Assembly (NCBI RefSeq): GCF_964204645.1
Contig: NC_134034.1
Coordinates: forward strand, 6,484,914-6,548,913
Reading direction: 5' to 3'
Length of the DNA: 64,000 nt
From: Tubulanus polymorphus
Lineage: Eukaryota; Animalia; Nemertea
Shown: piece after piece, positions 1 to 45,993 of the stretch
Numbering within the stretch: position 1 is the stretch's first letter
Layout of the letters: each line of letters begins with the position of its first letter
Notes under the pieces: model-generated
Databases searched by the model: none
The model's input: the letters and a program-made list of their open reading frames with translations, nothing else
What the model was told of the DNA's origin: nothing
Program-made: the position numbers and the translations under genes

Positions 1-3000
1 CAGTAATAAATGTTCAAAATGAAGATAATAAATGTTTTCTATGGTCAATTATTAGTTTTTTTACACCCAACTCAGGAAAATGTTTGTAGAATAACAGATT
101 ACCGGAAATATGAAACAATATATAAAATTGATCAATATCGAGTAACTATAAAAATGATTCCTAAAATAGAAGAAGTTAATAATTTAAAAATAAATGTATT
201 TGAATTAATGCAATTACCAAAGACAAAGGGTGAGAATATTAAAGGTTATACATTAGAAGCTTTATATTTAACAGAATATTATGATGATGAAAATGCTGAG
301 GATTTGTTATATTACAAAAAAGATGAAAATGAACATTATATGTGGTTAAAACAAAATGATTTATTCTTTAGAACAGAAAGTGATCATCATCGTACAATTT
401 ATCTATGTAGAAAATGTTTATCTAAATTTATGACTGAGAATACATTATTAAAACATAAAGAATTATGTGATAATAAAGATTTTTGTAAATTAATAATACC
501 AACAAAAAAAGATTGTAAGTTGAAATTTACTATTCATAAATTTAAAAATATTGTTCCATTTGTAATTTATGGGGTTTTGAATCGTTGAATAAAGAATTAA
601 CTGATCAAGATAGAAAAGAAATATACAATAAAAAGCAATTTTTAAAATCAATGGATAAAGGAAATGAACTAAATGAAGATATAATTCAAGACCTACCAAT
701 TATAAACACAATTAAAAAAGTTCATCAAAGAGCTACTGCTTATGGAATTTACATAAAATCAAATTATCCCGAATTATATGAAAGTCAATATATTTCTTTT
801 AGAGGTGAAAATGTAGTTAATGATTTTTATAATAACATAATTGAATTAGAAAGTGATTTTGCAAAATTATTAAACAAAAATAAAAAAATAGTTATGACAA
901 AAGAAGATAGAATTGATTTTAATTATGCAACTCATTGTTGTTATTGTGAAAAACGTTTTTATTCATTTGATAAAAAGTTAGAGATCATGATCATTTAAAT
1001 TCAAAATTACGCGGAGCTGATCATGAAGATCGTAATTTATAAGCTAAGAAAGTTAATTTCGTACCAATATTATTTCATGAGTTATCAGGCTATGGTACCC
1101 ATCTATTTATAAAACAATTATCGGGAAAATTAGGCGCAATTAATCAAGAAATAGAAGAATACAATGCTATGAATGGCGCAAATGTAAGAAAATATGACTT
1201 TTAAACTATTAGCTAAGACATCTGAAAATTATATTTCATTTCAATTTGGTTGCATTAGATTTTTAGATTCTTATAGATTTCTAGCAAGTTCGTTAGATAA
1301 TTTAGCAAAAAGTTTAGTTGATAATGATTTTATAATAACTCGACATTATTATCCAAATGAACAAGATTTAAAATTATTGAGATATAAAGGCGCAATCCCT
1401 TATTCATTTTATAAAACACATGATGATTTTTATGTAACAGAATTATCAAAAGAACAGTTTTATGATCAATTTAAAGAGGAGTATGTGAAAGATGAAGTGT
1501 TTAATATAACATTAAATATTTGAAAAATTTAGAGAAGTTAATTTGAATCATTTTTATGTTGATCCTAGCTATTGTTATTCAAGTCCTGGTTTAACCTGGC
1601 AATGTGGTTTAAAATATACAAATGTAGAATTACATTTATTAAAAGAACCAGACATGGTTTTATTATTTGAAAAATCAATTAGAGGTGGAATTAGTGGTGT
1701 TATGGGAGATAGACATTTTAAAGCAAATGATGAATATAAATTATTATATATTGGCGCCAATAATATATATGGTTGGGCAATGATGCAACCTCAACCATAC
1801 AAAAACTTTATATTAACAGAAGTTGAAAATGATGATAAAACTAATTGGGAAAGTGCAATGATGGGTTTAGAAGATGAAGCACCAATTGGTTATTTCTTTG
1901 TAGTTGATTTAGAATATCCTGATTACATAAAGTTTAAAACAAGAAACTTACCTTATTGCCCAGAACATTTAACCGTAGATGATAGTTATTTAAGTGAATA
2001 CCAGAAAAAAATAAAACCGAAAGATCATGGTTTTACAGAAAAATTAATACTTACTCAAAATAATAAATACAATTATATTGTTCATTATAGAATGTTAAAA
2101 TTTTATCTAAAACAAGGAATGAAATTAAAGAAAGTACATAGATATATTGAATTTAATCAATCGAAGTGGTTAGAAAAATATATAGATTTCAATACTCAAC
2201 AGAGAACCATATCAAAAACAGATTTTGAAAAAGATTTCTTCAAATTAATGAATAATAGTTTTTATGGAAAAACATGTGAAAATATTAGAAATAGAAATGA
2301 TATTGAATTAGTAAATAATTCTGAAAGATTAAGACATTTACAATCAAGCCCTAGACATTTAGGAAATAAAAGATTTGAAGATTATTTAACAGCAGTTAAA
2401 TTAAAAAGAACTTCAATGAAATTTAATAAACCAATATTTATAGGTTCAATTGTTTTAGAAATATCAAAATTATTAATGTATGATTTTTATTATAATTTTT
2501 TACAACCACTTTTTGGGGAAAAGCATATTGAAATATTATATTTTGATTCTGTAACAGCTGACACCCCAATATTATTAAAATGTAATGATAAAATATTGAT
2601 AAGAAGAATTTCAGAAATAATTCCAAAGCAAAATGAACGTTATATTTCATATGGTGAAAAAGAATTAATACTAAATAAATGGATTGATGGATGTATGGAC
2701 AAGAAATGGATGGAAAAAATTAAAGAATATAATTAGGCATAAAACAAATAAGAAAATCGATAGAGTTAGAACTAAATTAGGGTTTGTAGATGTTACAGAA
2801 GATTAAACGAAATGGTGATGAAATAAAACCAACTGATATAAAAATTGGAGATGAATTATTACATAAAAGATTTTTCCAAAGAATGAATCATATGTCATTT
2901 GATGAAATAATTGATAATATTTATAATATAGAACCCGAAACATTAGAAGAAAAAGAATATTTTATCAAAGGATTTTTCATGGGAGATGGTTCAGCAGGTG

Positions 3001-4057
3001 TGTATAATTATGTTTGGGGTTATAAATATTGTTGGTATTTATGCAATCAAGATTTGAAATTATTAGAAAGAATAAAGAAATACTGTGAAGAAGTTTACCC
3101 AAATAAAACATTTAAAATCATAGATTTTATGAAATCATCAGCAGTTTATAGAATACATGTAAATAATACTAAAGATTTTACTATTAAATATAATGATGAA
3201 TTCTATATTCATGCAATAGTGAAAGTAATACTTCAACTAAAGAAAAGATAGTTCCAGATTATGTATTAAATGCAAAAGATAATTTAAGAAAATGATTCTT
3301 CATTGGATTCTATGCTGCAGATGTCTCAAAAAACTATACAAAACAGAAAACATATCTTTGACACAAAAAGGAAAAGTTGCTATATCAGGATTGAATATAT
3401 TATGCAATTCATTAGGTTTTAATATGAATATTGGATTGATTAAATCTAAACCAAATTGCTTTAATTTAAGCCACACAGAAAAAGATTTAACTGAAGAAGT
3501 TAGAGATTTATTTGAAATATATAACCCAACAGATTATGTTTATGATTTATCAACTGAAGATGGAACATTTAACTGTGGATTTCCATTAATAGCGGTCAAT
3601 ACGGACGCGTACATACTAAGAATCAAGACAAATGACATAACAAAGGACTTAAAAACATTAAAACATCATTTTAATTTTAGCAATTATCCCAAAGATCATG
3701 AACTATTTACCAATGATAATAAAAAGATTCCTGGTAAGTTTAAAGGTGAATTAGGGAGTGATGAAATGATTGAATTTGTTGGGATAAGAAGTAAAATGTA
3801 TAGTTATAGAACAAAAGATCATGAAGCTAAAAAGTTAAAAGGAATAACAAAGCATGTGGTTGATAAATATATAGAATTTCAAGATTATATAAAGTGTTTA
3901 TATAACTCAATTGTAATGAAACATAAAATGAATTGTTTAAGATCAGAAGATCACGAGATGTACATTAATGAAGTTGAAAAAAACTAGTTTAAATCCATTC
4001 GACGATAAGAGATATATTTTGGGTGATGGAATAAAAACATTACCTTATGGTTATTAA
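1..4057 (+). pseudogene. polB: Protein-primed family B DNA polymerase (type 1), intein-containing, frameshifted
   Basis: Fragments 10..588, 585..998, 1194..1523, 1543..2736, 3292..3987 are collinear with copy B polB; motifs SIRGG, (D>G)ANNIYG, KLMNNSFYGK, YFD|TD, RSKMY, KLKGI. Confidence 0.93.
2548..3600 (+). mobile_element. Intein with LAGLIDADG homing endonuclease in PolB motif C (degenerate)
   Basis: 1053-bp insert between YFD and TDAY, absent from copy B. Block A SVTADTPILL, block B RVRTKLGFVDVTED, LAGLIDADG motifs FIKGFFMGDGS and FFIGFYAAD, blocks F/G YVYDLSTEDGTFNCGFPLIAVN followed by Thr+1. Confidence 0.93.
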
Positions 4058-5229
4058 AACATAAAATCAAGATCATCATACTCGAAATCACTACTGGTTT
4101 CTTCATTTTTTTTAAATTGTTTAGGTTCTTCCATTTCATTTTTCTCATTTAAATAAAGTTCTACATTGTACCACATTTCATCTCGCTCTCTTTGTTTCTT
4201 TTTGTTTGTTAATTCATCAAATGGAATTATAATATCGATGTTTAAAAAATTTACAATCTTATTTAAAAAGAATTCATAATTAATTGACTCTGTAATTCTA
4301 TTATCCACATAATATCTTAATATTTCTTTGAATGTTTCTTTTATATTTTCCATATCTTCTTCTGTTTAGGTTTTTTATAATAATCGTTAAATGATAGATA
4401 TAAATACATTTTCTTTTCTTGTGTGTTAAATGTTGACGGAATAATTGTTTTTATAATATCTTTTTTAGTTATTTCACCATTTTTATTTTCTATCCTTTTC
4501 ATTTTTTCAAGCCATTGCTTATATTCTGGTGTATAATCTTCCATAGAAAATATTTTAAAAATTTCATCTAGATATTTTGATTTTGGTTCTATGAGAATAT
4601 CTCTAGTTTTTTCATCACCCCATAAATTTCTTTGCCATCCACATTCATTACAAAATATCACAGAATTTTCTTGTCTTAAGTACTCATAAACACATTGTGG
4701 GCATTTTTTTCTATCATATCTTGGTAATAGATCTTCATTAAGCTCTTGGTATTTTCTTACGTTTTCTTTATGTTTTATTGTTCTATTATGTAGATTTAAA
4801 TTACTTGTTGTAATAATCAATTTACAATATTTACAATAATATGTTTTTCTTACTAATTCATTATATTGTTTTTCTAAATTTTCAACTGTTTCTACATTAT
4901 CTGGTAACGTTTTCTCATATTTCATTTTTTCAGAAATAATCTTTTATATTATTCTTATCATAGAATAAGAAAGGTCTTTTCCAAATAATTTCAGATTCAA
5001 CTTCAACAGAATTACTATTACTTTCATTAATATCAACATTAACCTTTGAATCATTAATTCTACACTTCTCTGAATGTTTTTTAACATAATTTCTTGAGAA
5101 TAATTCATTACAATTTGGGCAGTTTGTTTTAGTGGGTTTATAATTTTTATCATGTTTTTTCATATGTCGAGCCAAATTACTTTTTCTTAGAAGTTCACCA
5201 CAAATTTCACATGGTATCTTCTCATCCAT
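4054..5229 (-). pseudogene. Zinc-finger / VLTF3 (poxvirus A2L)-like transcription factor, copy A (frameshift and internal deletion)
   Basis: ORFs 4930..5229, 4341..4925, 4054..4353: C2H2 fingers, CxxC..CxxC ribbon, INYEFFLNKI and RDEMW motifs. Confidence 0.75.
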
Positions 5230-5297
5230 GTATTTAGGAAAAATTTTATTAAAATTAATTTTGAGTGATGAGAGGTAATTTTTTTATGTTATAAATA

Positions 5298-5870
5298 ATG
5301 GTTGAATTAAAAGAATATAGAATATTTGTTGATTCTAGAAAACTTAAAAATTATAAATCACATAATTTACTAGTACAATTAGATAGAGAATTTAAGAATT
5401 GTGTAGATTTAAAATTAGTAAATGTAAGTTTATGTAATTCTTTTAATATATCGAATAAAAGTCTTGATCATTTAGCTTTTAAAATTCATGTTAGAAATTT
5501 GAATAAATGGTTTCATCTTTATCTAAAACCAGGATTATATAATTTAGAAACATTAGCGCAGGAAATTAATAGAAGAGCTCGTTTAAAAATGGGTGCAGCT
5601 GCTAGATTTGAAATTAAATTTGTTAAAAGTGATAGTTCGAATAAAGTAAGAATAAAGTTAACTAATGAACAACATAGATTTCTAGTAAGAAAACCTTTAG
5701 CTAAACTGTTTGGAATTCTTCCAGATAGAGATTATTCAAGTATTGAAACTTATACAAATTTAATTACTTTTACACACTTTTATATTTATTGCAATTTATT
5801 TGATCCTACAAAAACATTTGAAGCAACTAAAGATACGATTTGTAATTCTAGTATATTAAAAAAACAATAG
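5298..5870 (+). pseudogene. Minor capsid protein (penton), 3' end deleted
   Basis: IFVDSR, LVNVSLCNSF, PGLYN, FYIYCNL; homologous to the intact 25763..26515; fused by deletion to the next gene near 5858. Confidence 0.72.
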
Positions 5871-6078
5871 ATAAGGAAACTTTAAATGTAGAAAAGATTA
5901 CCAATTTAATTAGAGAATCTTTAAGATTTTATGAATTAGATGAATATTTTATCATTGATGATATTAAAAGAATAATAACTGAAATATATGAAAATGAAAC
6001 TAATAATACTATAAATGTTGAAATAATCATAAATAAGATAACTGAATATTTTGAAGATAAAAATTTTTTTCTAAATAA

Positions 6079-6299
6079 ATGGCGGATCAGAAGTGGATAA
6101 TAACTGGATTATATAATGGTGCCTTACTATCAGTTGGAACTGTTGGTTATTCAATGGTATTAAAAAAGTATTTAAAATGGGAAGTGTTAATGTTGATAGA
6201 TTTGATATAAATGATATTTTAAAATTAACGTTAGCAGTTACTTTATCTAATCTAACTATTGATTATTTGGAAAAACAAAAATATATTCCTCCTATATAA
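6079..6299 (+). pseudogene. Small hydrophobic Polinton protein (73-aa family), frameshifted
   Basis: Homologous to 26889..27110. Confidence 0.7.
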
Positions 6300-6323
6300 A
6301 TGCATAATTTTTTTGCTAAATAA

Positions 6324-6746
6324 ATGGCATCTGCAATTATAACTATAATAGGATCGGCAATTGTTAACGCTTTAGCATTTACTGGTGGTGGTTATTTATT
6401 TAAGCATATTGATAAAAATGGATCATTATCAGAACAAAAAAGACATAACTTAGCATTAGAGAAATACAATAAAGCAGCAGAAGAATATAGAGAAAAAAGA
6501 CAAAATTACATGGATTATATCAATAAGGAATTATATGATCAGAAGATTTCACATAGAGATTTTCAATCAGTTGATGATGCAATGATTTTATATAACGCAG
6601 TAACAAATAAAGAAAAATTACATCTATACAAACCTAAATTATCAGATTATTATACCCCAAGTAAAGAAAAACAGAAATATGAAATAATATGGATTTTAGG
6701 TGGAACTGTTATTGTTATATTTGTAGCATATAAATTTACTAATTAG
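6324..6746 (+). CDS. 140-aa Polinton protein with N-terminal hydrophobic helix and C-terminal TM
   Basis: Intact; near-identical copies at 27139 and 38457; TAAATG start. Confidence 0.8.
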   Translation: MASAIITIIGSAIVNALAFTGGGYLFKHIDKNGSLSEQKRHNLALEKYNKAAEEYREKRQNYMDYINKELYDQKISHRDFQSVDDAMILYNAVTNKEKLHLYKPKLSDYYTPSKEKQKYEIIWILGGTVIVIFVAYKFTN

Positions 6747-7015
6747 TAATTTCTTTTGTAAATAAATGGATGATAAAGTTGATAATATTGATATTATTCC
6801 TCATGATATAAATAAAACTAAATTAAAAACATATTTAGAAAAACAAATATTAGAATTTGAAAGTGACTTTAAGATAAAAAAGAAAAAATATTTAAAAAGT
6901 AAAATTATCTATTATTTTCACGATAGGTAAAACACAATATCCGTGTTGACGCGATGAGGAGAGAATCCCACAATGATAATAAAAAGTCCGAAAATGAAAC
7001 TTTGAGATAGTAGTT

Positions 7016-7060
7016 TATTCAACGTTTCGACTATATCCTAATAGTCATCTTCAGGAATAA
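7016..7060 (-). ncRNA. Minimal type I hammerhead ribozyme in Penelope pLTR (minus arm)
   Basis: Reverse complement of 10776-10821. Confidence 0.72.
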
Positions 7061-7648
7061 TGAGATACTACAGAAATTATGAGATATATATACAATCCAG
7101 AGACAAAGAGACTAATTCAAGTAATCAGAGATGATACAAACTAAAGGAAAATTAACGTAGAAACAGTTACACGCTAAAATAGATTAAAGGGAAGCAAACT
7201 AAGGGGTGATTATAAACAACAATAGTGAGTATAAATATAAATGAATCTTAAAGTCAGTAGTAAAAAGAAAGACAAACTAAGGGGCACTTAAATTAAAACA
7301 AAGGTGAATACAAGTTAAGTCAGAGACGAAATTGATGAGAGAACAAATAACAAATAATCAAAGGGGAAATCAAGTGTTGAGTTTAACCAGTTTACAGAGG
7401 AAGTTTATTATGGGGTGAAAAACCATTATTAAGGTTTACAACGTTGTTCGAATTTTCAATAATTAATGCAGATTCCAAAATATGTCTTCTAGTTTTATCG
7501 CTGCAAGGGTAAACTAATTCAGCATTAGCAAAACCAAAATTGTGTGAAGTCTGAAAAACATGACTAGCAACTCCGCTTTCAGGTTTAAAGTTTTTTACAT
7601 CTAATTTATGCTCTTTTATGCGTTGATTAAGATTCCGACCTGTTTCTC

Positions 7649-9406
7649 CTATATATACTTTGTCGCAAACTTTACAAGGTATTTTATTTTATAAATTCCA
7701 CAGTTTAGGGATTCGGTTTTCGGTTTGTTGTTAATCAATATGTTACTAAGTTTATTATTGTATTTAAAGATGAGTTGTTTATTTAGTGACCGAAGAGAAA
7801 CTTTAGAATTCTCGAGGAAAGGTACATACGGTACAATGATAGGCTGTTTATCGGTAGCCAACGTAGGAGTTCTAAGGTTGTTATTTCTAAAATGCGTAGT
7901 ACGAGCTTTAAGTAGGGCTTTTTTCAATAGGAAATCGGGGTAGGCAAGTTTTTTGAGAGATTGGTTAATATGGTGAATTTCATCGGGTAGAAATGAGGGG
8001 TCGCAAATTCTCAAAGCGCGAAGAAATAATCCTTGAGCTAAACCGAGTTTAATATCCGGAGAAGTAAAAGAGAAGTAATGGAGGTAGGATTCAGCGTTGG
8101 TAGGTTTCCTATAAACCGCGAATTTCAAAAAGGATCCACAGTTAAAAATCAAAACATCCAGAAAAGGTATTTTACTATTAGATTCCCATTCATACGTAAA
8201 AGCCAGAGACGGGTAAAGGGAGTTTAAATATATAAGAAAGTTATCAACATTGAAGTCAAAGGGAACCAAAGCCAGAACATCGTCAACATATCTGAGCCAG
8301 ATTTTAGGGTGAATATCAGTGTAAAGAGGCAATATTTCAGATTCAACATGTTCTAGGAATAAATTAGCTAGAATAGGACTTAGAGGATTTCCCATAGCGA
8401 TACCGAATGTCTGTTCGTAAAAACAATTGTTGAATTCAAAAAAGGAGTCCGTCGTACAAATAGAGATAAGGTCGATGATACAATCCGTAGGAATGCCGAA
8501 GTTAATGTTAAGTGATGGTAATCTGCGTTTTAAGAAATCAAGAGTAGGTCCAAGACGAACATTGGTAAAAAGGGAAGTAACATCAAATGATATAAATTTG
8601 TCGTTGCCAGGGATAATATTCTTAATACGTTCAAGTAAGTGTTGATTATGGCGAAGGTGCGACGGAGAGAACGAACCGAGCACCGGAGATAACTGTTTCG
8701 CGAGAAATTTAGATAACCGGTATGTAGGAGAATTACAATTGGAGACTATAGGGCGCAGTGGAACATTATCTTTATGAATTTTAGGCAATCCATAGATATA
8801 TGGTAAAGAGGGAAGACGTGAATGGAACTTATTCAGAGTTTCTTTAGCGGAGGGGAAACGTTTAATAATATCCGAAAGACTTCTGTTGAAATTAGCTTGC
8901 ATACGAGGAAGAGGATTCGATTTAAGTTTCTTATAAACACCAGGATTATCCAAGAGAGATTGCATTTTAACATTATAATTATCCCGATCTAAAATCACAA
9001 TCTTGCCACCTTTATCAGCCTTAGATATTTTAATAGTTTTTAACTTCCGTAGTTCTTGGAGGGCGAGCCGAAATCGACGAGGTAGATATTCAAAAAGGTT
9101 CCTGTTGAGTTGATCGCATATAGCCTGTAGATTCATGAATATAAAGTTATAGTCCAAACTGTTCGGAGATGATTTGCGATATTCCAATTGGGTGACAAAG
9201 TCTAAAACATGTTTATCTTGATGAGGAAGAGAGAAATTCAAACCGTAGCCGAGAAGTTGACACTGAGTAGAAGATAACGTGGTTGAAGACAAATTTACTA
9301 TGTTTTCGGTGTTGCTAAATCTAGTCCAAGGGCTGGAATCAATGAGTTTATTCAGTTGGTTGGTAAGATCCACGGACTTTCTGTGCTGATGATTTTTTCC
9401 AGAGCC
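7649..9406 (-). pseudogene. Penelope reverse transcriptase running into a frameshifted GIY-YIG endonuclease
   Basis: KADKGG, YGLPKIHK..PLRPI, SFDVTSLFT, GIAMGNPLSP, RYVDD, IPFLDV; [20 protein letters not shown] follows a 5-bp duplication. Confidence 0.92.
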
Positions 9407-9490
9407 TTTCATTTTCGGACTTTTTATTATCATTGTGGGATTCTCTCCTCATCGCGTCAACACGGATATTGTGTTTTACCTATCGTGATC

Positions 9491-10010
9491 ATGCTACCCA
9501 CGGATCGAAATATCGTATTAAAATTCTTCTTCTTCACGTTCCCGTACCTCATCGCTAGCTTCCGAAATTATGAGAAATGCTATATCAAATCCAGGACTGC
9601 TAAAAGTAAAGTCAAGTTCCTTCAGGAGTGTTATGCCGAAAAAGTGGTTCCGCGATCACTTTCTTGGATTTGGAAATACGACTCCAGCTCTGCGTTTCCA
9701 CCCGAAGCTAACAAGCAACTCAAATTCGCTATAGATCGTGCTAAGGAAGACTGTAACTATCAGTTCTACAAATTCCGTCAATCTCAAAATTATTTGAAGT
9801 CACACGTACCGGACCTATTCCTCTGGAAATCGCTCTCCACTATTGCTCAAGGCTCTGGAAAATATCATCAGCACAGAAAGTCCGTGGATCTTACCAACCA
9901 ACTGAATAAACTCATTGATTCCAGCCCTTGGACTAGATTTAGCAACACCGAAAACATAGTAAATTTGTCTTCAACCACGTTATCTTCTACTCAGTGTCAA
10001 CTTCTCGGCT
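9491..10010 (+). pseudogene. Penelope ORF N-terminus (MLPTDRN...), joined by deletion to the GIY-YIG/3' region
   Basis: Overlaps the minus-arm sequence GSGK..QLLG, then jumps to LENSKVSL at about 10010. Confidence 0.85.
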
Positions 10011-10775
10011 CGAGAATTCTAAAGTTTCTCTTCGGTCACTAAATAAACAACTCATCTTTAAATACAATAATAAACTTAGTAACATATTGATTAACAACAA
10101 ACCGAAAACCGAATCCCTAAACTGTGGAATTTATAAAATAAAATACCTTGTAAAGTTTGCGACAAAGTATATATAGGAGAAACAGGTCGGAATCTTAATC
10201 AACGCATAAAAGAGCATAAATTAGATGTAAAAAACTTTAAACCTGAAAGCGGAGTTGCTAGTCATGTTTTTCAGACTTCACACAATTTTGATTTTGCTAA
10301 TGCTGAATTAGTTTACCCTTGCAGCGATAAAACTAGAAGACATATTTTGGAATCTGCATTAATTATTGAAAATTCGAACAACGTTGTAAACCTTAATAAT
10401 GGTTTTTCACCCCATAATAAACTTATATCAAAATTCCTCTGTAAACTGGTTAAACTCAACACTTGATTTCCCCTTTGATTATTTGTTATTTGTTCTCTCA
10501 TCAATTTCGTCTCTGACTTAACTTGTATTCACCTTTGTTTTAATTTAAGTGCCCCTTAGTTTGTCTTTCTTTTTACTACTGACTTTAAGTTTCATTTATA
10601 TTTATACTCACTATTGTTGTTTATAATCACCCCTTAGTTTGCTTCCCTTTAATCTATTTTAGCGTGTAACTGTTTCTACGTTAATTTTCCTTTAGTTTGT
10701 ATCATCTCTGATTACTTGAATTAGTCTCTTTGTCTCTGGATTGTATATATATCTCATAATTTCTGTAGTATCTCA

Positions 10776-10821
10776 TTATTCCTGAAGATGACTATTAGGA
10801 TATAGTCGAAACGTTGAATAA
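10776..10821 (+). ncRNA. Minimal type I hammerhead ribozyme in Penelope pLTR (plus arm)
   Basis: TTATTC-C-CTGAAGA-T-GACTAT(tagg at)ATAGTC-GAAAC-GTT-GAATAA: core boxes plus stems I and II. Confidence 0.75.
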
Positions 10822-11190
10822 ACTACTATCTCAAAGTTTCATTTTCGGACTTTTTATTATCATTGTGGGATTCTCTCCTTATCTATTATTTTATTATCAG
10901 TGGTTCAGTTACAATTAGTTCTGTAATAATATTTCTAGCAATATTCAGTCCATTAACACCTTTAGCTATATCAATTGGCGTGCTAGGATTATCATCAAGT
11001 GTTTTAACTGGTATAAGTTCAAAATTAAATATAAAAAGTAATAAAGAAAAAATTAAAACTAATATAAAAGAAATTAATAAATTAAAAAATACACTAGATT
11101 ATATAATAAGTTTAAATGGTAATATTACAGTTGAAGAACAAGATAAATTATTAAAAGAATTAATAAATTATTAATTTTTTAATTATATAA

Positions 11191-12512
11191 ATGGGGTTTC
11201 CAAAAGCTTTCCAATATAATAAATCAATTAAATATAATATTCCTGCAATAGATTTTTATAAAAATATTACATATAAAAATTTGGTTTTAAATTCATTAAC
11301 TAATTTAGAAATGTATGTTACTGAAACTAAAAATTTTAATGTTAAAATGGAAAATATATTTTATGTGTATACAATCAATTTTAGAAATTTAAATGAGGCA
11401 AAACAATGGTTATTAAAATCTAATATGAAGTATTGGCATAACCAATTAAATTTTGCTGTTTATTGCGCAACAACAGGGTGTGGTATAAGTTGGAATGATC
11501 ATTTAAACAAACCAAGTTTACCATTGATGTTATCACTTTTTAGATTTCATACATATTTTCAAATGAAATTAATATTAGATGAATTAGAATGTCCTTTACC
11601 AGGTTCAAAATATTTTAATGAACTAAATAATAATATTAATTTCTAAGTTTTACAAAATATGTAATGAATTTAATATTAATTCAAATAATGATTTTAGATC
11701 AAAAATTGGAACAATGGGCGGATTAGGAATATTATATACTAAAGAATTTGGAAAAATAATAACAAATTCAGATATAAGAACACTAAATTGGAATGAATTA
11801 CCAAAATATTATAACAATATACAACAACAAAACAATAATGGTTGGATTAATTTTATTTTAGAAAATAGTGAAGGTTTTACAAAATCAGGCATACAAAGAA
11901 TAAATCAATCAATTAGAACTTATTTGATATGTTTTTAGGTGCGCAAGTTGAAACAAGATCACCAATAGATGATTTGATGCGCAGAAACAATTCAAAGTAT
12001 TATTTGAAGATTCAATTCATAATGATAAAAATAGATCGATTCCAGAAAACATAGTTAGGTACCAAAATTATTTAGATAAATCTCATGTAAGATTAAATTA
12101 TTGTATAGGCCCTAATCTATTAATTATTTCTAACGATTAAGTATTAAAGATGGGAAATATAATTGGTTATAATAATTTAATTAAGACTGCAGCAATAAAT
12201 AATTCATTTGGATTGAATGATATAAATAAAAAGATAAATACTGCTCCAAAATTAATGGAAGGTGAAAACATTAAAAAACATATTCAATCAAAAGAAACTA
12301 AAACTAAGAATATTAAATTAAATGATGATTCTAAAATAAAAGATTACAATTCTACAGAAAATGGTGCCGTACGGCACCTACACGGTGATATAAAAACTGA
12401 TAATATTCAACATGACATAATTAAAACTGATAATGATGATAAATCCCATGAAAATACTAAATTAGCTATTACTTGTATAGGAATTGTAATAGGAGGAATA
12501 TTATATTTTTAA
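11191..12512 (+). pseudogene. Conserved Polinton protein with NQLNFAVYCATTGCG motif and C-terminal TM, copy A
   Basis: Fragments homologous to 28032..29421. Confidence 0.8.
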
Positions 12513-12534
12513 TTTTAATTTTTTTATTATGTAA

Positions 12535-13948
12535 ATGGCAAAAGGTGGAGGAGATTATGAAATGGAAAACATGGGAAATAATAATGATGATTATAATGAT
12601 GATGATTATAATAATGCTGAAACTAATATTGATAATGATGATGAAACATCATATAATTCTAATTTAGCAGATAGTGGTTCTAAAGGCCCATCAACAGATG
12701 AATTTGATAGAAGAACTAAATCGAGAATAAATCCTGAAAATGAAAATCCAGATTTAGTAAAACAAAATTTAGAATATAATGAATATATTCATAATTTTAA
12801 ACCTATATTTGAAAGATCTGGGTATGATATCAATGATAGAGGTGCTAGACTTTTAGTACAAGAATTAAAATCTTTAGATGGTGAATAATACTATCATTTG
12901 AAAGATGATTATTATATTAATATCACTTATAAAAATCAAGATAAAATATTAGCAGAGTCAACTTTGCTTAAGTTAGACCCATCTAGAATTAAAAGAATAG
13001 GAAATAGTAATGAAATAGAAAATGCTACCAGCACAGAAATTATTAAAAATGAAAGAGTATTTAAACGAAGAATTAATGAATTATTTGAAACAATCAATGA
13101 TGATTTAGAACCAGAAAGAACTTCTGAACAGAATATAATTTCCAAAACTAGTAAACTTAAATCAAATAAAGTACCAATTGAAAAACTTTTACCAAATGGA
13201 TTACTTGATGCAACAGATCAAGAATTAGAAGATTTAGATATATTTTCTGATAAAGCAATTAGAGAAATTATTAGTATAAGACTTGCATCTGATAAAATTG
13301 CGCATGATAAAAGTATAAGAGATTTTTAAATTAGAACTTTGGAAAAAGATAGAACTGTTAAAATTAAATAAATAGAACAACTAAATTAAGATAGAGATAA
13401 TAAAGTTATTGAAGAAATCGAATTTAAAAAAAGAAATGCATATTTAGAAAAAGAAAAAGATGATTTAGAATAAAACATAGAATTACAAAAAGAAGAAATT
13501 AAATTATTATTAAAATCATATGATTATAATATTAATAGATTAAAAATTATTTTTAAAGATTTGTTGATAAAACCAAATTCTGAAATATCATTAAAAGATA
13601 GAATAAAATTATTATTTAAGTTAGAAGGAATAACAATTCTTTCAATTCTAACAGCTGTACCTATGTTATTTACAACAATAGGTTTAGCAATATCAAATGC
13701 TTTAAAATCTACACCAAATCCTAATAAACCAGATAAACCCCAAATGATAATAATTCTATACAAGATAAAGTTAAGGATGGTTTAAAAGAAATTAGCAAAA
13801 TATCTATGGGAACTATCTAAAAAATCTGCTGCAGCTTTACAGGGAGTTATTGCATCGATTGGTGGTTTTATATTGAAATCTGCAGGAAACATTATTATTG
13901 TAAGTGCAATTATTTTTGGGTTAGTGAATATGATAAAAAATAAATGAT
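12535..13948 (+). pseudogene. Acidic / coiled-coil / TM Polinton protein (477-aa family), copy A
   Basis: Fragments homologous to 29445..30878 and 40642..42116. Confidence 0.8.
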
Positions 13949-13967
13949 TAATTTTTTTGTTAGATAA

Positions 13968-15125
13968 ATGAGTGGGAGTTACATAAATCCTTCTAAGAAT
14001 CATAGAATATCTAATGCTATTAAAGCAGAAAGATCTCATCATACAATTACTCATAATCCTTCCAATATTAATCCCGATGAAACTTTATATGTTAGAATCC
14101 CTAGATTAACACAAAATACTTTTTATGTTCCAAATAGTATTTATTTATCAGCTGATATAAAAGTAACTGGCAATAATAATAATTATGTTGTTGATAATGT
14201 TGGAAGATATTTGATTAAAAAATTAACTATAAAGATTGGCCCAGAAACAGTTTTCTCATTAGATGATTATAATTTATTTACCCATTACAAAGATTTATGG
14301 TTAACTAAAGAAAATAGAAATAATATGATATTTCAAGGTATCCAATCAGAAAACCAAAATAAATTAAGATCAGAAGCTAATAATGCAGTAGTAACTAATG
14401 CTATAGATAATTTGATAAAAAAATATTTATGGAAGCAAATATAAAATTCCATTAGACTTTGAATTGATAAATAATAATGCACCTTTATATAAATATGCAA
14501 TTCAAGAAGATATTATATTCGAAATAACATTTGCTCCGGTTAATGAAATTGTATTATCTAGCGTTGTTAAAGATATGGGTTATAAATTATCGAATATATG
14601 TTTAGAATATAATACAATAACTGATGAAAATATTGCTAACACAATTCAAACTCAATACAATCAAGGATTTTCATTATTATATGATTATATTGATAAATTT
14701 AAAACTGTAACTATTAATGCTCATAATGAAATAATTAATGAGAATATTAACTTCCCAAGAAGATCTATTAAAGGCATATTAATATTTTTTACCATTGCAA
14801 CATATTCTAATGGCGCAATACAGGTTGATAAGTATTATAATCCTGAAATAACAAAAGTAGAAATAACTATCGAAGGAATAGCAAATAAAATATTTTGTCA
14901 AGGAATGAGAATGATAGATCAATGGCCAGAAATTAGAAAACATTTTATGAATGAAAAAGTAAAATCATCTGAAAATTGTAATATTAATCAAATTGATTAT
15001 TATACCGGTAATAAATACGCATTATGGTTAGATTTCAGAACAACAGAGGATAATTCATTACATGGTTCTGGGAAAAAACTACAGAACACTAAAGATGGAA
15101 AACAATTATTCATGACCAAGAAAAC
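13968..15125 (+). pseudogene. Major capsid protein (double jelly-roll), one frameshift, C-terminus deleted
   Basis: LYVRIPRL, LIKKLTIKIG, YKIPLDF, YKLSNICLEY, NINFPRRSIKGI, YALWLDFR; position between the structural block and integrase. Confidence 0.75.
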
Positions 15126-15951
15126 AACACATAAAAAAATTGTTAGAAAATATGAAACTCGTAAAACTTTCGTAAGTTATGTAGATCAACAGTGGCAAGG
15201 AGATTTAATTGCTATGAAAAATGTTAAGAAAGATAATGATGATTATTGGTGGATATTGAATATGATTGATATTTTTAGTCGTTAAGTATGGAGCTTCCAA
15301 CTTTATAGAATAGATGTTGATCAATTTGATGATGGAAAAGAATTTGATAATTCACTTGTTCATGAACTCTTAGAAAATCATAATATTAGATATTTTTCAA
15401 CAAAATCGGATAAAAAAGCAGCAGTTGTTGAACGATTTAATAGAACATTAAGAACAAGAATGTGGAAATATTTTACAGCAAATAATCCTTTTAAATGGAT
15501 TGATGTTTTACCAAAATTGATAGAAGGTTATAATAATTCTTATCATTCTTCTATTGGAATGAAACCTATTGATGCTAGAAAACCTGAAAATGCTGAAATT
15601 GTTTGGAATAATTTATATGGAGCATTTCTTGTAGATGATTTTGGTGAACCTAAATTTAAAGTTGGTCAAAATGTTAGAATTTCTAAGTATAAAAAGATAT
15701 TTGACAAAGGATACGATCGTAATTTTACTAGAGAAATATATAAAATAAAAAAGGTAATAACAACAAAACCATATGTCTATAAATTAGAAGATTTAAATGG
15801 TGAAGAAGTTGATGGGTACTTTTATGAAAAAGAATTAAGTTTAACTACTGAAAATCTAGAACAAGAATTTAAAATTGAAAAAGTATTAAAAACAAAAACT
15901 ATTAATAGAAAAAAAATATTCTTTAGTAAAATGGGTTGGATGGCCAGATAA
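15126..15951 (+). pseudogene. Retroviral-type (rve) integrase with C-terminal chromodomain, copy A
   Basis: QWQGDL, IDIFSR, QFDDGKEF, VERFNRTLR, YHSSIGMKP, FKIEKVL..KWVGW. Confidence 0.9.
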
Positions 15952-16559
15952 AATAAGGAATTATTTATATTTGAGCCTCATAATATGTTAATTTCTGGCG
16001 TAACAAATTGTGGAAAAACTTATTTTATATTAAATTTATTAGAAACTATTTATAAAAACTATTTTGATAATATAGTATTATTCTGTCCAACATATGAATT
16101 TAATCAAACTTATGATAGAAATATTACTAGAAATAATAAATTTATTATATTTAATCCTAAAACAGTTATTAAAGATATTTAGATAATTGTATAAAAATAG
16201 CAATTGATATTTATAAAGATTCAAATACATTATTCATTATAGATGATTGTGCAAATTTACATGATTCAAAAGTTAGAGAAAGTAAGTTATGTTATTTAGC
16301 TTTCTCTGGTAGACATTTTGGGATAACAACATGGGTTTTAAATCAAAAATATAATTAAATTGTTAAAGATTTTAGAGAAAACATTAAATTTTTAGTATTA
16401 TTCTACAATAAAGATAGAAAATCGATGAAAAATGCGCTTGAGGAAAATGATATCATTCCACATGATTTACAAAATGAATATATGGATAAATTGAAAAATA
16501 ACAAAAAATCAAAATTACTATTTCGATTACAACACCCATTTAAATATGAATTCATTTAA
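15952..16559 (+). pseudogene. Genome-packaging ATPase (A32/FtsK-like), copy A
   Basis: Walker A GVTNCGKT, Walker B FIIDD, GRHFGI..LNQ; frameshift and stop. Confidence 0.88.
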
Positions 16560-18630: not shown

Positions 18631-18799
18631 ACAAATTCAAGTTTGAAGACAGATTTAGAATAAAGACTGTACAAGTTTATAGAGTTTAGAAATGCAAAAT
18701 ACAATACGAACAGGTTCAGCGCACAAACTCTGAGCACACAGCGAGCGATAATGCGAGAGAGGACTGTAATCCAATCCTAGAGTTACTCATTCATCAAAT

Positions 18800-20112
<1,313 letters not shown>

Positions 20113-20360: not shown

Positions 20361-20399
20361 CCACTCATCACCACAAGTAATTTTTTTCCCTAATAAATG
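20361..20399 (+). promoter_or_regulatory. Putative promoter CCNCTCATCAC...TTTTTCCCTAATAAATG upstream of polB
   Basis: Same motif on the minus strand upstream of ZnF-VLTF3 (5265-5275, 25730-25740). Confidence 0.5.
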
Positions 20400-23300
20400 G
20401 GAGACAGTGAGTTCCAAACAGAAAAAAGTGATGTCAATAAAAATCAATATTATTGCCCATATTTTAAAAAATACATCGATAAATCTAATAAAACTAAACA
20501 TGAAAAATCTTCAAATCATATAAAAAATGTAATAGATTTTGAAACTCCAGAAAATTCCAATGAAAGAAAAGAACGATTAGAAAATATGAATGTGGATGAA
20601 ATAAAATGTGAAGTTTGTAATGAATTTATAGTAAAAAGGAATTATAAAAGACATCTCGAATCACAAAAACACCATCAAAATTTGAGTAATAATGTTTTAG
20701 GAAAAGATTATTTTGATAATAAACCTCAACAAGTAAAAGAATCAACTTCAAAAACAAAATCCATTTCAAATAAACCTTACATGGAAAATGTTAGAAATTA
20801 TATTGATTCACTAGAAATAAAAGATACAATTGAAATCTTAGAAACATTACATAGTAAAATTGGTCCTGCAGCTATTATATTTAGATTTTTTAAAGGTACA
20901 ACAATAGAAGATTATAGTAAATTTAATGAAATAATAGAAAAAATACTAGATTTGATAACAGATGTTGAATATCCAAAAATTAGTATCTCTGGGAAAGTAA
21001 GTTTTATAAAGTCAGAAGAAAAAATGGATTATAATATTCAAACACTCTCTGAAGAAATAATTTCAAAAACACAAATAAAAGAGAAGTTAGAAAAAATATT
21101 AAATGAATTTAAACGTCATATTGAAGAAAGATATTTTGAGGGTTCTGGTTTAACATTGAATGAAATTATATATTTAGATTTAAATGTTTATAATACAAAA
21201 AGAAATAAAACATCAAAAAGTAATAAAATGTTTAAAAATAATTCAAACTTTATAATAGAAAAAGATATGAAAGCATCAAGTTATATTAAATTACCATTTT
21301 TATCAAAAGCAATTATAAATGTTAAAAATGAAGACAACAAATGTTTTCTGTGGGCAATTATTAGTTGCTTACATCCATCACAGGAAAATGTTTGTAGAAT
21401 AACAGATTATCGGAAATATGAAACATTATATAAAATTGATCAATATCCAGTAACTATAAAAATGATTCCTAAAATAGAAAAAATTAATAATTTAAAAATA
21501 AATGTATTCGAATTAATGCAATTACCAAAGACAAAAGGTGAAAATATTAAAGATTATACATTGGAAGCTTTATATTTAACAGAATATTATGATGATGAAA
21601 ATGCTATAGATTTGTTATATTACAAAAAAGATGAAAATGAACATTATATGTGGTTAAAACAAATTGATTTATTCTTTAGAACAGAAAGTGATTTTAACAG
21701 CCATAAAATTTATCTATGTAGAAAATGTTTATCTAAATTTAGAACTGAGAATACATTATTAAAACATAAAGAATTATGTGATAATAAAGATTTTTGTAAA
21801 TTAATAATGCCAACAGAAAAAGATTATAAATTGAAATTTACTAATCATAAATTTAAAAATATTGTTCCATTTGTAATTTATGGGGATTTTGAATCGTTGA
21901 ATAAAGAATTAACTGATCAAGATAGAAAAGAAATATATAACAAAAAGCAATTATTAAAATCAATGGATAAAGGAAGTGAATTAAATGAAGATATAATTCA
22001 AGACCCACCAATTATAAATACAATTAAAAAAGTTCATCAAAGAGCTGCTGCTTATGGAATTTATATAAAATCAAATTATCCCGAATTATATGAAAGTCAA
22101 TATATTTCTTTTAGAGGTGAAAATGTAGTTAATGATTTTTGTGATAAAATGATTGAATTAGAAAGTGATTTTGCAAAATTATTAAACAAAAATAAAAGAA
22201 TAGTTATGACAAAAGAAGATGAAATTGATTTTAATTATGCAACTCATTGTTGTTATTGTGAAAAACGTTTTTATTCATTTGATAAAAGAGTTAGAGATCA
22301 TGATCATTTAAATTCAAAATATCGTGGAGCTGCTCATGAAGATTGTAATTTACAAGCTAAAAAAGTAAATTTCGTACCAATATTATTTCATAATTTATCA
22401 GGATATGATACCCATCTATTTATAAAACCATTATCGGGAAAATTGGGCGCAATTAATCAAGAAATAGAAGAATATAATGCTATGAATGAAGCAAATGTAA
22501 GAAAATATGATTTTAAACTATTAGCTAAAACATCTGAAAATTATATTTCATTTCAATTTGGTTGCATTAGATTTTTAGATTCTTATAGATTTCTAGCAAG
22601 TTCATTAGATAATTTATCAAAAAGTTTAGTTGATAATGATTTTGTTATAACTCGATATTATTATCCAAATGACCAAGATTTTAAATTATTGAGATATAAA
22701 GGCGCAATTCCTTACTCATTTATAAAACACACGATGATTTTAATGTAACAGAATTATTAAAAGATCAATTTTATGATAAATTAAAAGAGGAGTATGTGAA
22801 AGACGAAGTTTTTGATAGAACATTAAATATTTGGAACCATTTTAAGATGAAAAATCATGGTGAATTAGTTGATTTATATTTAAAATCAGATGTTATGATA
22901 TTAGCTGACATATTTGAAAAATTTAGAGAAGTTAATTTGAATCATTTTAATGTTGATCCTTGTTATTGCTACTCTAGTCCTGGTTTAACCTGGCAATGTG
23001 GTTTAAAATATACAAATGTAGAATTAGATTTATTAAAAGAACCAGATATGGTTTTATTATTTGAAAAATCAATTAGAGGTGGAATTAGTGGTGTTATGGG
23101 AGATAGATATTTTAAAGCAAATGATGAATATAAATTATTATATATTGACGCCAATAATTTATATGGTTGGGCAATGATGCAACCTCAACCATATAAAAAT
23201 TTTATATTAACAGAAGTTGAAAATGGCGATAAAACTAATTGGGAAAGCGCAATTATGAGTTTAGAAGATGAAGCACCAATCGGTTATTTCTTTGTAGTTG

Positions 23301-24397
23301 ATTTAGAATATCCTGAAAATATAAAGTTTAAAACAAGAAACTTACCTTATTGCCCAGAACATTTAACTGTAGATGATAGTTATTTAAGTGAATACCAGAA
23401 GAAAATAAAACCGAAAGATCATGTTTTTACAGAAAAATTAATACTTACTCAAAATAATAAATACAATTATATTGTTCATTATAGAATGTTAAAATTTTAT
23501 CTAAAACAAGGAATGAAATTAAAGAAAGTACATAGATATATTGAATTTAATCAATCGAAGTGGTTAGAAAAATATATAGATTTCAATACTCAACAGAGAA
23601 CAATATCAAAAAATGATTTTGAGAAGGATTTTTTTAAGTTAATGAACAATGCATTTTATGGAAAAACATGCGAAAATATTAGAAATAGAAATGATATTGA
23701 ATTAGTGAATAATTATGAAAGATTAAGGCATTTACAATCAAGTCCTAGACATCTAGGAAATAAAAGATTTGAAGATTAATTAACAGCAGTAAAATTAAAA
23801 AGAACATCTATGAAATTTAATAAACCAATATCTATAGGTTCAACTGTTTTAGAAGTTTCAAAATTATTAATGTATGATTTTTATTATAATGTTTTGCAAC
23901 CACTTTTTGGGGAAAAGCATATTGAAATATTATATTTTGATACTGATGCGTACATATTAAAGATAAAAACTGATAACATAACAAAAGACTTAAAAACATT
24001 GAAACATTATTTTGATTTTAGCAATTACCCCAAAGATCATGAACTATTTAGCAATGATAATAAAAAGATTCCTGGTAAGTTTAAAGATGAATTAGGAGGT
24101 GATGAAATGATTGAATTTGTTGGGATAAGAAGTAAAATGTATAGTTACAGAACAAAAGATCATGAAGCTAAAAAGTTAAAAGGAATAACAAAACATGTGG
24201 TTGATAAACATATAGAATTTCAAGATTATATAAAGTGTTTATATAAATCAATTGTAATGAAACACAAAATGAATTGTTTAAGATCAGAAGATCATGAGAT
24301 GTACATTAATGAAGTTGAAAAAACTAGTTTAAATCCATTTGATGATAAAAGGCATATTTTAGATGATGGTATAAAAACATTACCTTATGGTCATTAA
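20397..24397 (+). pseudogene. polB: Protein-primed PolB type 1, full length and intein-free; one frameshift (~22725) and one stop (23779)
   Basis: N-terminal zinc fingers, DNKCFLW..EHY (vOTU-like), ExoI YGDFES, EndoVII-like RDHDH..AHEDCN, ExoII FHNLSGYD, DANNLYG, KLMNNAFYGK, YFDTD. Confidence 0.95.
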
Positions 24398-30919: not shown

Positions 30920-31547
30920 ATGAGTGGGAGTTATATAAGTCCTTCTAAGATTTCTAGAATATCTAATGCTATTAAAGCAGAAAGATCACATCATATAATT
31001 ACTCATAACCCTTCAAATATTAATCCCGATGAAACTTTATATGTTAGAATTCCTAGATTAACACAAAATACTTTTTACGTTCCAAACAGTATTTATTTAT
31101 CAGCCGACATAAAAGTAACTGGCCATGATAACAATTATGTTGTTGATAATGTTGGGAGATATTTGATTAAAAAATTAATTATAAAGATTGGTCCAGAAAC
31201 AGTTTTCTCATTAGATGATTATAATTTATTTATGCATTATAAAGATTTATGGTTAACTGAAGAAAATAGAAATAATATGATATTCCAAGGTATTCAATCG
31301 GTAAACCAAAATAAATTAAGATCTGAAGCCAATAATGCAGTAGTAGCTAATGATGTAGATAATTTGATTAAAAAGATTTATGGAAGCAAATATAAAATTC
31401 CATTAGATTTTGAATTGATAAATAATAATGCACCGTTATATAAATACGCAATTCAAGAAGATATTATATTTGAGATAACATTTGCTCCTGTAAATGAAAT
31501 TGTATTATCTAGCGTTGTTAAAGATATGGGTTATAAATTATCGAATA
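30920..31547 (+). pseudogene. Major capsid protein, N-terminal half
   Basis: Homologous to 13968 onward; broken after YKLSNI. Confidence 0.75.
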
Positions 31548-34510
31548 TAAATCAATATATAATATAAATTCTCATTCACAACATATTATTTCAAAACAAC
31601 ATATAGATGAAAAATTAGATAAATGTTATAATGAAGTAAGAACTAAAATAGAAGAGAAATATTTTGAAGGATCAGGTTTAATATTTGATGAAATAATACT
31701 TATGACTTTACATGTATACAATACAAAATATAATAAGTTAACTAAATCAAAACCAATAGATGAAAATAATTTATCATATTATAAAGATGATAATATAAAT
31801 GGATCAAGTTATATCAAATTACCATTTAAAACTAATGCTGTTATAAATGTACAAAATAAAGATGATAAATGTTTTCTATGGACAATTATAAGTTGCTTAC
31901 ATCCAGTTGAAGATTATAATCAACATATTTATAGATTAACACATTATAAACAATTTGAAAATAATCATAATATAGATAATTATCCAGTTAGAATTAAAAA
32001 TATCCCGAAAATAGAAAGAGATAATTATATAAAGATAAATGTGTTTGATTTAGTCAAATTACCAAAAACAAAAGGTAACAATATAAAACATTATACATTA
32101 GAACCTCTATACTTATCAAAAGATTATGATTCAAATGATGTTATAGATATATTATATTACGAGAAACATTATATGTGGATTAAAAGAATTGATTTATTTT
32201 TCAAATCAGAAAATGATTATACTCGTAAAATGTTTCAGTAATGAAAGTGCAGTATTGAATCATAAACAATTATGTGAAAATCATGATTATTGTAAAAAAG
32301 TTTTACCAAATGAAAAAGATAAGATTTTAGAATTCAAAAAATATGATTACAAGAATAAAGTTCCATTTGTAATATATGGAGATTTCGAGTCACTCAATAA
32401 AGAATGAAAATGATGTAATTGATTATTCAGATCCTCTAATAACAAATACAATTAAAAATATTCATCAAAGTGCTGCAGCTTTCGGGTTATATATTAAATC
32501 TGATTATCCAGAACTAATCAAAAGTGAATATTATCATTATAGAAATGAAAATGTTATTAATCATTTTTGTGCCTTATTAATTGAATATGAAATAAATTTA
32601 ATAAATTGTTGAATAAAAATAAAGAAATAATTATGACAGAAGAAGATAAAGAAGAATTTGAGTTTGCTGATAAATGTTATTATTGTGAAAAGATATTTAA
32701 TCTTAAAGATATAAAAGTTAGAGACCATGATCATTTGAATGGAAAGTATAGAGATGCAGCGCATGAGAATTGTAACTTACAAGCAGAGAAAATTAATTTT
32801 GTTCCAGTTACATTTCATAATCTATCAGGGTATGATGCTCATTTATTCATCAAACAATTATGTCATAAAATAGAAGAAATCAATAATGAAATAGAAAGAT
32901 TAAATTCAAATAGATCAAAAGATAGAATACCAACTTATAAATTTAAAATGTTAGCTAAATCATCTGAGAATTATATATTTTTCCAATTTGGATGTTTAAG
33001 ATTTATAGATTCATATAGATTTTTAAGCAGTTCATTAGATGATTTATCAAAATCATTAGTTGATGATGAATAAGAAATATTTAAGCAACACTATCCAAAT
33101 AATGACGATTTTCAATTAATGAGATATAAAGGAGCAATTCCATATTCATTTTATAAATCACATAATGATTTCAAAATAACTGAATTATTAAAAGAACAAT
33201 TCTATGTTGAAATAAAAAATGAATATGTTAAAGATGAAGTATAAATAGAACATTGAATATTTGAAATCATTTTAGAATGAAAAATCATGGACAATTAGTA
33301 GATTTATATTTAAAATCAGATGTATTATTATTATCTGATATATTCGAAAGGTTAAGAGATGTAAATCTAAAATAATAAAATCGATCCTTGCCACTGTTAT
33401 TCATCACCAGGTTTAACTTGGGATTGTGGTTTGAAATTTACAGATATAAAAATGGATTTGTTAACAAATATAGATCAATTATTATTATTTGAGAAATCTA
33501 TAAAAAGAGGAGTTTCGGGTGTATTAGGCGATAGATATTTCAATGTAAATGATAACCCTGGATATAAGTTATTATAAATGGATGCAAATAATCTATATGG
33601 TTGGGCAATGATGGAACCCCAACCTTATGGAGTATTTGAAATAACTGAAAATTTACAGTATGAAAATAATCATAAATTTGATTGGAAGAAAAGAATTCTA
33701 GATATTGCAGATGATTTAGATACTGGTTACTTTTTTGTTGTAGACTTGGAATATCCTGAAGATAAAAAATTTAAATCCAGAAATCTAGCATACTGTCCCG
33801 AACATAAAACTGTTACACATGAAGAATTATCAAATTATCAAAAAAGAATTAAACCCGAAAATCATATTCATACAGAAAAGTTAATGGTGATTCAGGAAGA
33901 TAAATATAATTATGTAGTGCATTATCGGATGTTGAAGTTTTATTTGAATCAAGGAATGATCCTAAAAAAAGTACACAGATATATTTCATTCAGTCAATCT
34001 AAATGGTTAGAAAAATATATAGATTTTAACACCAAACAGAGAACTAAAGCTAAAACTGATTTTGAGAAAGATTTCTTCAAGTTAATGAATAATGCATTCT
34101 ATGGTAAGACTTGTGAAAATATTAGAAATAGAAATGATATTGAGTTAGTTAGTAATGGTAAAAGGATAAGGCATTTACAAACATATCCTAAGTTCATAGG
34201 TAACAGAATATTTGATGAAAATTTAGCTGCAGTTAAAATGAGGAGAACTTCTATGAAATTTAATAAACCAATTTATGTTAGTGCCTCAGTTTTAGAAATA
34301 TCAAAACTATTGATGTATGAATTCTACTATAACGTATTACAACCTCATTTTGGAGAAAAGCATATAGAAATCTTATATTTTGATAATGACAGTTACATAT
34401 TAAAGATTAAAACTAATAACATAACAGATGATTTGAAAACATTAAAACATCATTTCGACTTCAGTAATTATCCTAAAGATCATGAATTGTTTAACAATGA
34501 TAATAAAAAG
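31548..34510 (+). pseudogene. polB: Protein-primed PolB type 2 (divergent), truncated at both ends
   Basis: DDKCFLW, YGDFES, RDHDH, DANNLYG, KLMNNAFYGK, YFDNDS; much closer to 42585..45890 than to type 1. Confidence 0.9.
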
Positions 34511-45890: not shown

Positions 45891-45993
45891 GTTTCTACTG
45901 GAGTTATAATATTTTCTAACATGAAACCTATAGAATATAAGGACAAAAGTAAATCAGATAATATCGAATCAGAACAAAAATTAACTAAAATAA

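Follow-up and report, generated by a model that had tools for sequence, protein, structure and literature searches.

The genome of the nemertean Tubulanus polymorphus holds, in the stretch of 64,000 nucleotides analysed here (contig NC_134034.1, positions 6,484,914 to 6,548,913; hereafter the window), an insert that, to judge from its sequence, is a real but dead copy of a LAGLIDADG intein, seated at motif C of the protein-primed family-B DNA polymerase (pPolB) of a Polinton. The explanation that we favour, and hold to be likely, is that this broken intein belongs to a lineage that entered Polintons once and long ago from an RNA-primed viral family-B polymerase (PolB), and that it persists by homing in a host that is itself likely to be an animal.

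The insert, at 2548-3600 (+), measures 1053 bp or 351 codons and splits the polymerase codons exactly between YFD and TDAY, a site that we take to be the one labelled pol-c. Its first codon is serine and its last two are Val-Asn, and threonine follows in the +1 position. An earlier note on this DNA had described this arrangement together with two LAGLIDADG motifs, all of which were found again, and the intein motifs that it had recognised, from SVTxDTPI to DYVYDLxTE, could all be located, distributed over five reading-frame pieces. The note had also called the copy dead, and rightly so: there are four frame changes (near 2672, 2803, 3221 and 3350) and an in-frame stop at 3293, the block-B histidine is absent and the open reading frame (ORF) is lost as well, which leaves a pseudo-intein. 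One detail fared differently. The penultimate valine had been considered atypical, yet among 157 related inteins this residue is His in 69, Lys in 62, Ser in 14, Val in 2 and another in 10; histidine is thus not the rule in this family, and the valine was rejected as a special sign.

A custom profile, built from 126 inteins of non-Polinton (RNA-primed) PolBs with no Polinton sequence included, matches the insert piece by piece, from model position 1 to 346 of 347 (independent E-values, iE, of 2.7e-35, 3.8e-20, 3.3e-17 and 4.9e-4), the best other match in the window having an iE of 0.08; an intein profile thus covers the insert from end to end. With the longest insert piece as query, 272 relatives were found at E <=0.001 among 1.84 billion representatives, and the long relatives among the 150 matches listed are RNA-primed family-B polymerases, most of which carry an intein after the first aspartate of motif C. 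Sequence searches of the PDB with the window piece and with the intact relative P0155 gave nothing useful. The structure model of another intact Polinton intein, P0304 (predicted local distance difference test, pLDDT, 86), resembles the TliVMA, PI-PfuI and PI-SceI inteins (best E 2.3e-18, template modelling score, TM, 0.67), and its endonuclease part is I-DmoI-like in fold. In P0153 and P0155 the Pfam pPolB, intein and LAGLIDADG domains occur together; PF14890 scores 37.7 bits in P0155 against a cutoff of 35.8 and lies below cutoff in P0153, P0165, P0167 and P0303, and PF14528 is above cutoff in P0153, P0155, P0167 and P0303. Profile and tree agree with the proposal of the earlier note that this is a LAGLIDADG intein of the giant-virus PolB motif-C family, sited in a Polinton pPolB.

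The host gene was assigned through its relatives. PF03175, the pPolB class, is found in P0153 and P0155, to which copy B, a second polymerase in the window, is 56% and 51% identical; the pPolB pieces of the window alone gave no Pfam match. The element that houses the interrupted gene, copy A, is taken to be a Polinton because a VLTF3-like gene, a capsid remnant, an integrase and an A32-type ATPase lie behind the polymerase, which agrees with the host named in the earlier note. Matches to integrase (rve, E 1e-7 at 49378) and Pox_A32 (E 2e-11 at 50231) lie further along the window, and both are also represented in element A; the Capsid_N match in the window is weak (E 0.001, below cutoff), and no cysteine protease was matched among the 68 open frames scanned, which are part of all frames, the copies being decayed. 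Copy B is uninterrupted at 23941/23942 and aligns with copy A on either side of the site (94.8% identity over 1516-2551 and 90.8% over 3599-4953), so it is indeed the empty allele that had been proposed. In a third pPolB, copy C, the site at 34384/34385 is empty and its junction is a variant one; in a fourth, copy D, a long interspersed nuclear element (LINE) interrupts the gene upstream of the site.

Intact relatives came from a second search, which returned further Polinton polymerases that bear this intein at the identical site. These carriers include P0153 (1693 amino acids, on a 13-kb JGI contig) and P0155 (1537 amino acids, from a cluster of 136 members on ENA contigs of up to 1 Mb), both intact, the clusters of P0165 (121 members) and P0167 (17 members), and several more. 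Both intein ends were recognised by pattern, of which Ser1, the terminal Asn and Thr+1 are part, in 157 of the 432 stored proteins, and 20 of these 157 are Polinton-type and full-length. The acid residues of the two LAGLIDADG motifs are present in all 20 and the block-B TEDH in 18, at extein identities that go down to 37-57%. Full and empty polymerases come in pairs (1537 and 1191 amino acids), and nearly identical open polymerases of both states lie on contigs of 0.1-1 Mb. On these sequences the intein is polymorphic, with intact members, across several Polinton families. Scans of viral contigs with the window piece and with P0001 gave no relative, and a single phage-collection match was taken as chance.

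How the two states are distributed gives indirect signs of homing. The extein tree was made from 116 rows of at least 200 amino acids (25 full, 91 empty), of 176 rows, 54 of them without a scorable site. Intein state changes 20 times on it, the shuffled mean being 22.8 with 28-36 of 500 shuffles as low, and its starred branches force at least nine changes. P0155 differs from four empty relatives at 6-14 positions in the first 1000 columns and at 13-20 in the 100 columns around the site, where it differs from six full members at 1-3. Its 19-residue flank has at most 16-17 matches to the empty sites of other families and 10-11 to those of its eight nearest empty relatives. Between copies A and B, 11 of 45 nucleotides (nt) differ directly 3' of the site, against 45/915 elsewhere (permutation p 0.003). 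Full and empty alleles thus share nearly identical backbones, and in two of three comparisons their divergence is concentrated beside the site, a pattern that homing with co-conversion would lead one to expect. Such flank tracts fit co-conversion as well as selection in favour of empty sites that evade cleavage. Either process would need an active endonuclease, and plain recombination remains compatible.

Raw reads served as a stand-in for copy counts (one Illumina run of 2026 from one organism, 1934 Mb read or ~12% of the run, mapping filter 88%). At this filter the depth is 236-337 over the left flank; within the insert it is 185-257 in the 5' two thirds and 95-167 in the 3' third, and at 2547 there are 59 loose read ends and 5 joints that represent empty alleles; from depths and read ends we infer that the intein sits in ~70-75% of A/B-type molecules. 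At the breaks of the window copy, the reads that differ from its state number 133/134, 103/192, 158/184, 138/139 and 28/29. Of 3841 reads, just 110 match the window at >=99%, which indicates many different copies, in a read source that may be the same or a close species. A copy number of 20-200 would follow for a genome size of 0.2-2 Gb. The C subfamily has a depth of 368-632 with 334 reads crossing the empty site, and no intein end was seen among its loose ends listed. A marine metagenome (run X1) contributed a small share of matching reads, from which, at 4 records, no habitat is deduced.

The phylogeny speaks to the origin of the lineage. In an unrooted IQ-TREE tree (LG+G4) of 52 inteins chosen from 149 (the near clades and a sample of the rest), the eight Polinton inteins form one clade (100/100) on a long stem among giant-virus-type PolB inteins, and the window intein groups with P0153; P0251, a long branch beside the Polinton clade in FastTree, was excluded. 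The sister rows are P0013 and P0107 (98/91). The best PDB match of P0013 is 8ywg, presumably the African swine fever virus polymerase. A C-terminal signature, G[FY]PL, occurs in 19 of 19 scored Polinton inteins and in 14 of 126 RNA-primed PolB inteins, a set other than P0013 and P0107, and one of these 14 belongs to a polymerase nearest 1clq/1ig9, which we take to be that of phage RB69. In an approximately unbiased (AU) test a grouping of the Polinton clade with this set was not rejected (p 0.37), and for this reason P0013 and P0107 are not claimed as donor. The nearest non-Polinton inteins to P0153 are ~42% identical among the matches listed from 130 fetched loci. Identities of intein and N-extein run together over 36 pairs, which are not independent of one another, from ~44% to 88% (Pearson 0.95, Spearman 0.80), and the deep branching of intein and extein trees agrees. 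Since intein divergence tracks polymerase divergence, entry into Polintons appears ancient and not recent, and on this sequence evidence it was probably a single event. The simplest reading derives the lineage from inteins of RNA-primed viral PolBs, and the direction into Polintons is suggested by the far greater diversity of carriers outside them.

The wider family has further hosts. Topoisomerase II of viral type holds the same intein family in P0166, P0202, P0219, P0221, P0225, P0229 and P0253, and P0166 appears to hold three inteins. P0021, P0175 and P0189 form one intein subclade, and the host polymerase of P0021 is nearest to T4-type phage enzymes; the family thus seems to move between PolBs of phage-like and of eukaryotic-virus type. 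Many empty Polinton polymerases (P0275-P0432) have Cys and not Thr at motif C +1 (35 of the rows tallied), and this cysteine may mark sites that resist inteins or formerly held them. P0326, a Polinton-type polymerase under a Sulfurimonas label in UniRef, is probably eukaryotic DNA in a bacterial bin.

In the mechanism that we propose, Ser1, the block-B His, the terminal Asn and Thr+1 of intact copies would excise the intein and rebuild the catalytic D-T-D motif. As splicing restores this motif, the intein should be tolerated only while it splices, and carriers should keep a working polymerase, as intein chemistry suggests. The freed endonuclease would cut empty sites in related Polintons and repair off a full copy would move the intein and some flank into the cut site, whereas distant subfamilies with altered sites would escape cutting; integrated copies, that of the window included, would then decay as a whole. 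A homing cycle of this kind, in which cleavage of an empty site by the endonuclease is followed by repair that copies in the intein, is established background (PMC2814812; here and below, the sources cited are represented by portions of their text). A more far-reaching version can be advanced only tentatively: animals may carry true inteins, an old LAGLIDADG clade in Polinton polymerases that would act as a homing gene drive among integrated germline copies, sweeping one subfamily (~70-75% of A/B-type reads) with the sister subfamily, whose site has changed, left empty.

The closest alternative turns on where homing takes place, which is its sole difference from the favoured explanation. Homing could be confined to free Polinton virus genomes in co-infection, the integrated copies being passive fossils of a polymorphic virus population. 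We regard this as credible though somewhat doubtful: it sits well with the state of the window copies, decayed or truncated in four of four cases, with the capsid, integrase and ATPase remnants of element A and with the intein exchange between viruses described for giant viruses (PMC5784728), but the near-identical full and empty polymerases on long contigs indicate that one genome can hold both states, and pPolB carriers number 0 of 130 loci (tblastn) from the viral, metagenome and prokaryote scans, among the matches listed (metagenome). That homing has ceased altogether is an unlikely proposition. Here the intein would be ancestral to this Polinton clade and vertically inherited, empty sites arising by repeated exact loss or ordinary recombination; the correlated identities, the shared deep branching and the pair P0289/P0292, which lacks a flank tract, would all suit it. 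Very many exact losses would be needed, however, to account for the emptiness of most relatives (82 empty, 4 full and 34 unresolved of 120 matches), and neither the endonuclease acid residues kept in 20 of 20 inteins nor the clustering of differences beside the site in two families is what it leads one to expect. That a Mimivirus-like giant virus passed the intein to this Polinton recently and once only, as the earlier note had it, is very improbable. The motif and the intein family are those of giant-virus PolBs, a named mimivirus polymerase included, and an RNA-primed viral PolB is still the simplest source, so that this part of the claim stands; its recent or one-off character does not. The Polinton clade with its 100/100 support and long stem, the best outside match of ~42% and the AU rejection of a grouping with the mimivirus intein (p 0.025) led us to reject such a donor, the tracking of polymerase by intein identities speaks against recency, and the GC content of the insert (25.2%) equals that of the flanks (24.1% and 26.6%). 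A chimeric assembly or contaminant giant-virus fragment is hardly conceivable and was rejected, given that the insertion is codon-exact, raw reads cover insert and flanks, and independent intact database proteins share the junction.

Several points weigh against the explanation favoured here. The broken insert pieces gave no match to Pfam and NCBIfam intein models, and conservation of Ser1, Asn and Thr+1 is not independent evidence, being built into the pattern by which the relatives were selected. The extein tree is by FastTree only, with many branches weakly settled, and intein state would also scatter over it if exact losses recurred or copies recombined in the ordinary way. A second divergent patch between A and B (12/60 nt, 270-330 nt upstream of the site) indicates that mosaics also form away from the site, and full P0289 and empty P0292 have no tract, with 6/577 and 0/169 residues differing. 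To this are added the non-independence of the 36 identity pairs and the short reads, which do not resolve one copy end to end, intact or not. No single donor lineage is named because the family also occurs in T4-like PolB, in viral topoisomerase II and in archaeal-bin sequences.

The nearest known systems are the motif-C inteins of giant-virus (Nucleocytoviricota) PolBs such as P0209 of Acanthamoeba castellanii mimivirus, which share the motif, the Ser...Asn|Thr ends, the splicing blocks, two LAGLIDADG motifs and a length of ~340-350 amino acids. Unlike these, Polinton inteins sit in a protein-primed host polymerase that is integrated and multi-copy, and they form their own clade. Klebsormidium, Tetrabaena and Hondaea have inteins in DNA polymerases of endogenised giant viruses (PMC10710043), likewise a case of a viral polymerase intein on nuclear scaffolds, but the hosts are algae and a protist, the polymerases are viral-like, and the portion of that paper at hand mentions neither Polinton, animal nor metazoa. 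HNH and VSR nuclease domains within Polinton pPolB2 of nematodes, oomycetes and molluscs (10.1101/2023.08.22.554363; PMC11071308) are similar in that an endonuclease domain is inserted in an animal Polinton polymerase. Those are conserved fused domains, in a preprint (10.1101/2023.08.22.554363) whose available text is without mention of intein or homing, whereas the Polinton intein sits at a catalytic motif, joins a LAGLIDADG nuclease to a complete splicing domain and is polymorphic, with full and empty alleles. A single sentence in PMC11071308 suggests that nuclease domains in Polinton polymerases stem from intein invasions. The fungal nuclear inteins Prp8 and VMA1/PI-SceI (PMC5784728) share LAGLIDADG, residence in eukaryotic nuclear DNA and a similar fold, but occupy single-copy host genes and not a multi-copy Polinton.

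The intein hosts listed in the covered part of PMC5784728 are fungi, choanoflagellates, amoebozoa, apusozoa, algae and four families of nucleocytoplasmic large DNA viruses, with no animal nuclear or Polinton intein; the available text of PMC12220804, PMC5718144, PMC3671162, PMC13768754, PMC9939771 and 10.64898/2026.06.19.733378 has no such case. No published account of a Polinton intein was found in the literature (the search did not extend to supplements or subscription papers, nor to Repbase and other repeat databases), so that the clade is apparently undescribed so far. In surveys, as far as their text was at hand, the eukaryotic inteins are those of fungi, protists, plastids and giant viruses, with none from animal nuclear DNA or Polintons. 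If true, an intein that splices and homes within a Polinton family of many copies would amount to a parasite's parasite in an animal genome, would lend direct support to the suggestion of intein invasion in PMC11071308, and would connect the gene pools of giant viruses and Polintons through a common catalytic motif. Many full and empty copies within one genome would let sequence measure the homing cycle, and the endonuclease could harm empty Polintons and thereby limit their spread.

Table 1. Polymerase copies, intein parts and associated features along the window
Feature	Position	Strand	Remarks
N-extein of pPolB copy A	1..2547	+	continues beyond the first base of the window; frameshifted several times; 83 bp deleted relative to copy B
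Predicted intein at motif C of the copy A polymerase; LAGLIDADG endonuclease with two motifs	2548..3600	+	64% identity to intact Polinton intein P0153
N-terminal splicing region (Ser1, block A, block B to VTED)	2548..2803	+	His gone, frame breaks there
First LAGLIDADG motif, GFFMGDGS	2970..2993	+	
Second LAGLIDADG motif, GFYAAD	3305..3322	+	directly after in-frame stop 3293
C-terminal splicing region, blocks F and G	3532..3600	+	end GFPLIAVN
C-extein of copy A, Thr+1	3601..4057	+	one frameshift near 3977
Candidate co-conversion tract	3601..3645	+	flank unusually divergent from copy B; 11/45 nt differ
Remainder of Polinton A (VLTF3-like gene, ORFs, capsid, integrase, ATPase)	4057..16556	.	split by Penelope-like insertion
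VLTF3-like gene of Polinton A	4057-5079	-	
Capsid remnant, Polinton A	from 13968		
Integrase, Polinton A	~15205-15948		
A32-type ATPase, Polinton A	15952-16556		
pPolB copy B	20397..24397	+	site empty at 23941/23942; subfamily of A; one frameshift, one stop
pPolB copy C	31543..34510	+	site empty at 34384/34385; more distant subfamily; truncated 126 nt past site
pPolB copy D	42585..45899	+	LINE cut before site

The surroundings bear on the host. The BEL/Pao elements have been termed a metazoan subclass (PMC3118150, in the part at hand), no cellular marker gene was seen in the window, where BEL/Pao, Penelope-like, LINE and piggyBac elements are present, and an animal is the likely host of the window copy as read from these neighbouring transposons. 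Over 1-50900 at least four decayed Polinton copies follow one another head to tail on one strand, nested and truncated and with retroelements inserted, an arrangement that recalls a heterochromatic or PIWI-interacting RNA (piRNA)-cluster-like transposon graveyard. VLTF3-like zinc-finger genes on the minus strand, at 4057-5079 and 24394-25545, stand tail to tail with polymerases A and B. Penelope-like retroelements (6918-10883 and 16605-20312) have a reverse transcriptase, a GIY-YIG remnant and inverted and direct terminal repeats; the one at 6918/10872 splits a Polinton ORF. At 52409-55558 a remnant of a piggyBac-type transposase occurs together with a DUF6589 ORF, and the BEL/Pao retrotransposon at 58318-63693 is almost intact, with few in-frame stops. 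A (TA)n microsatellite of ~130 nt lies within a Penelope-like element, at 19981-20120.

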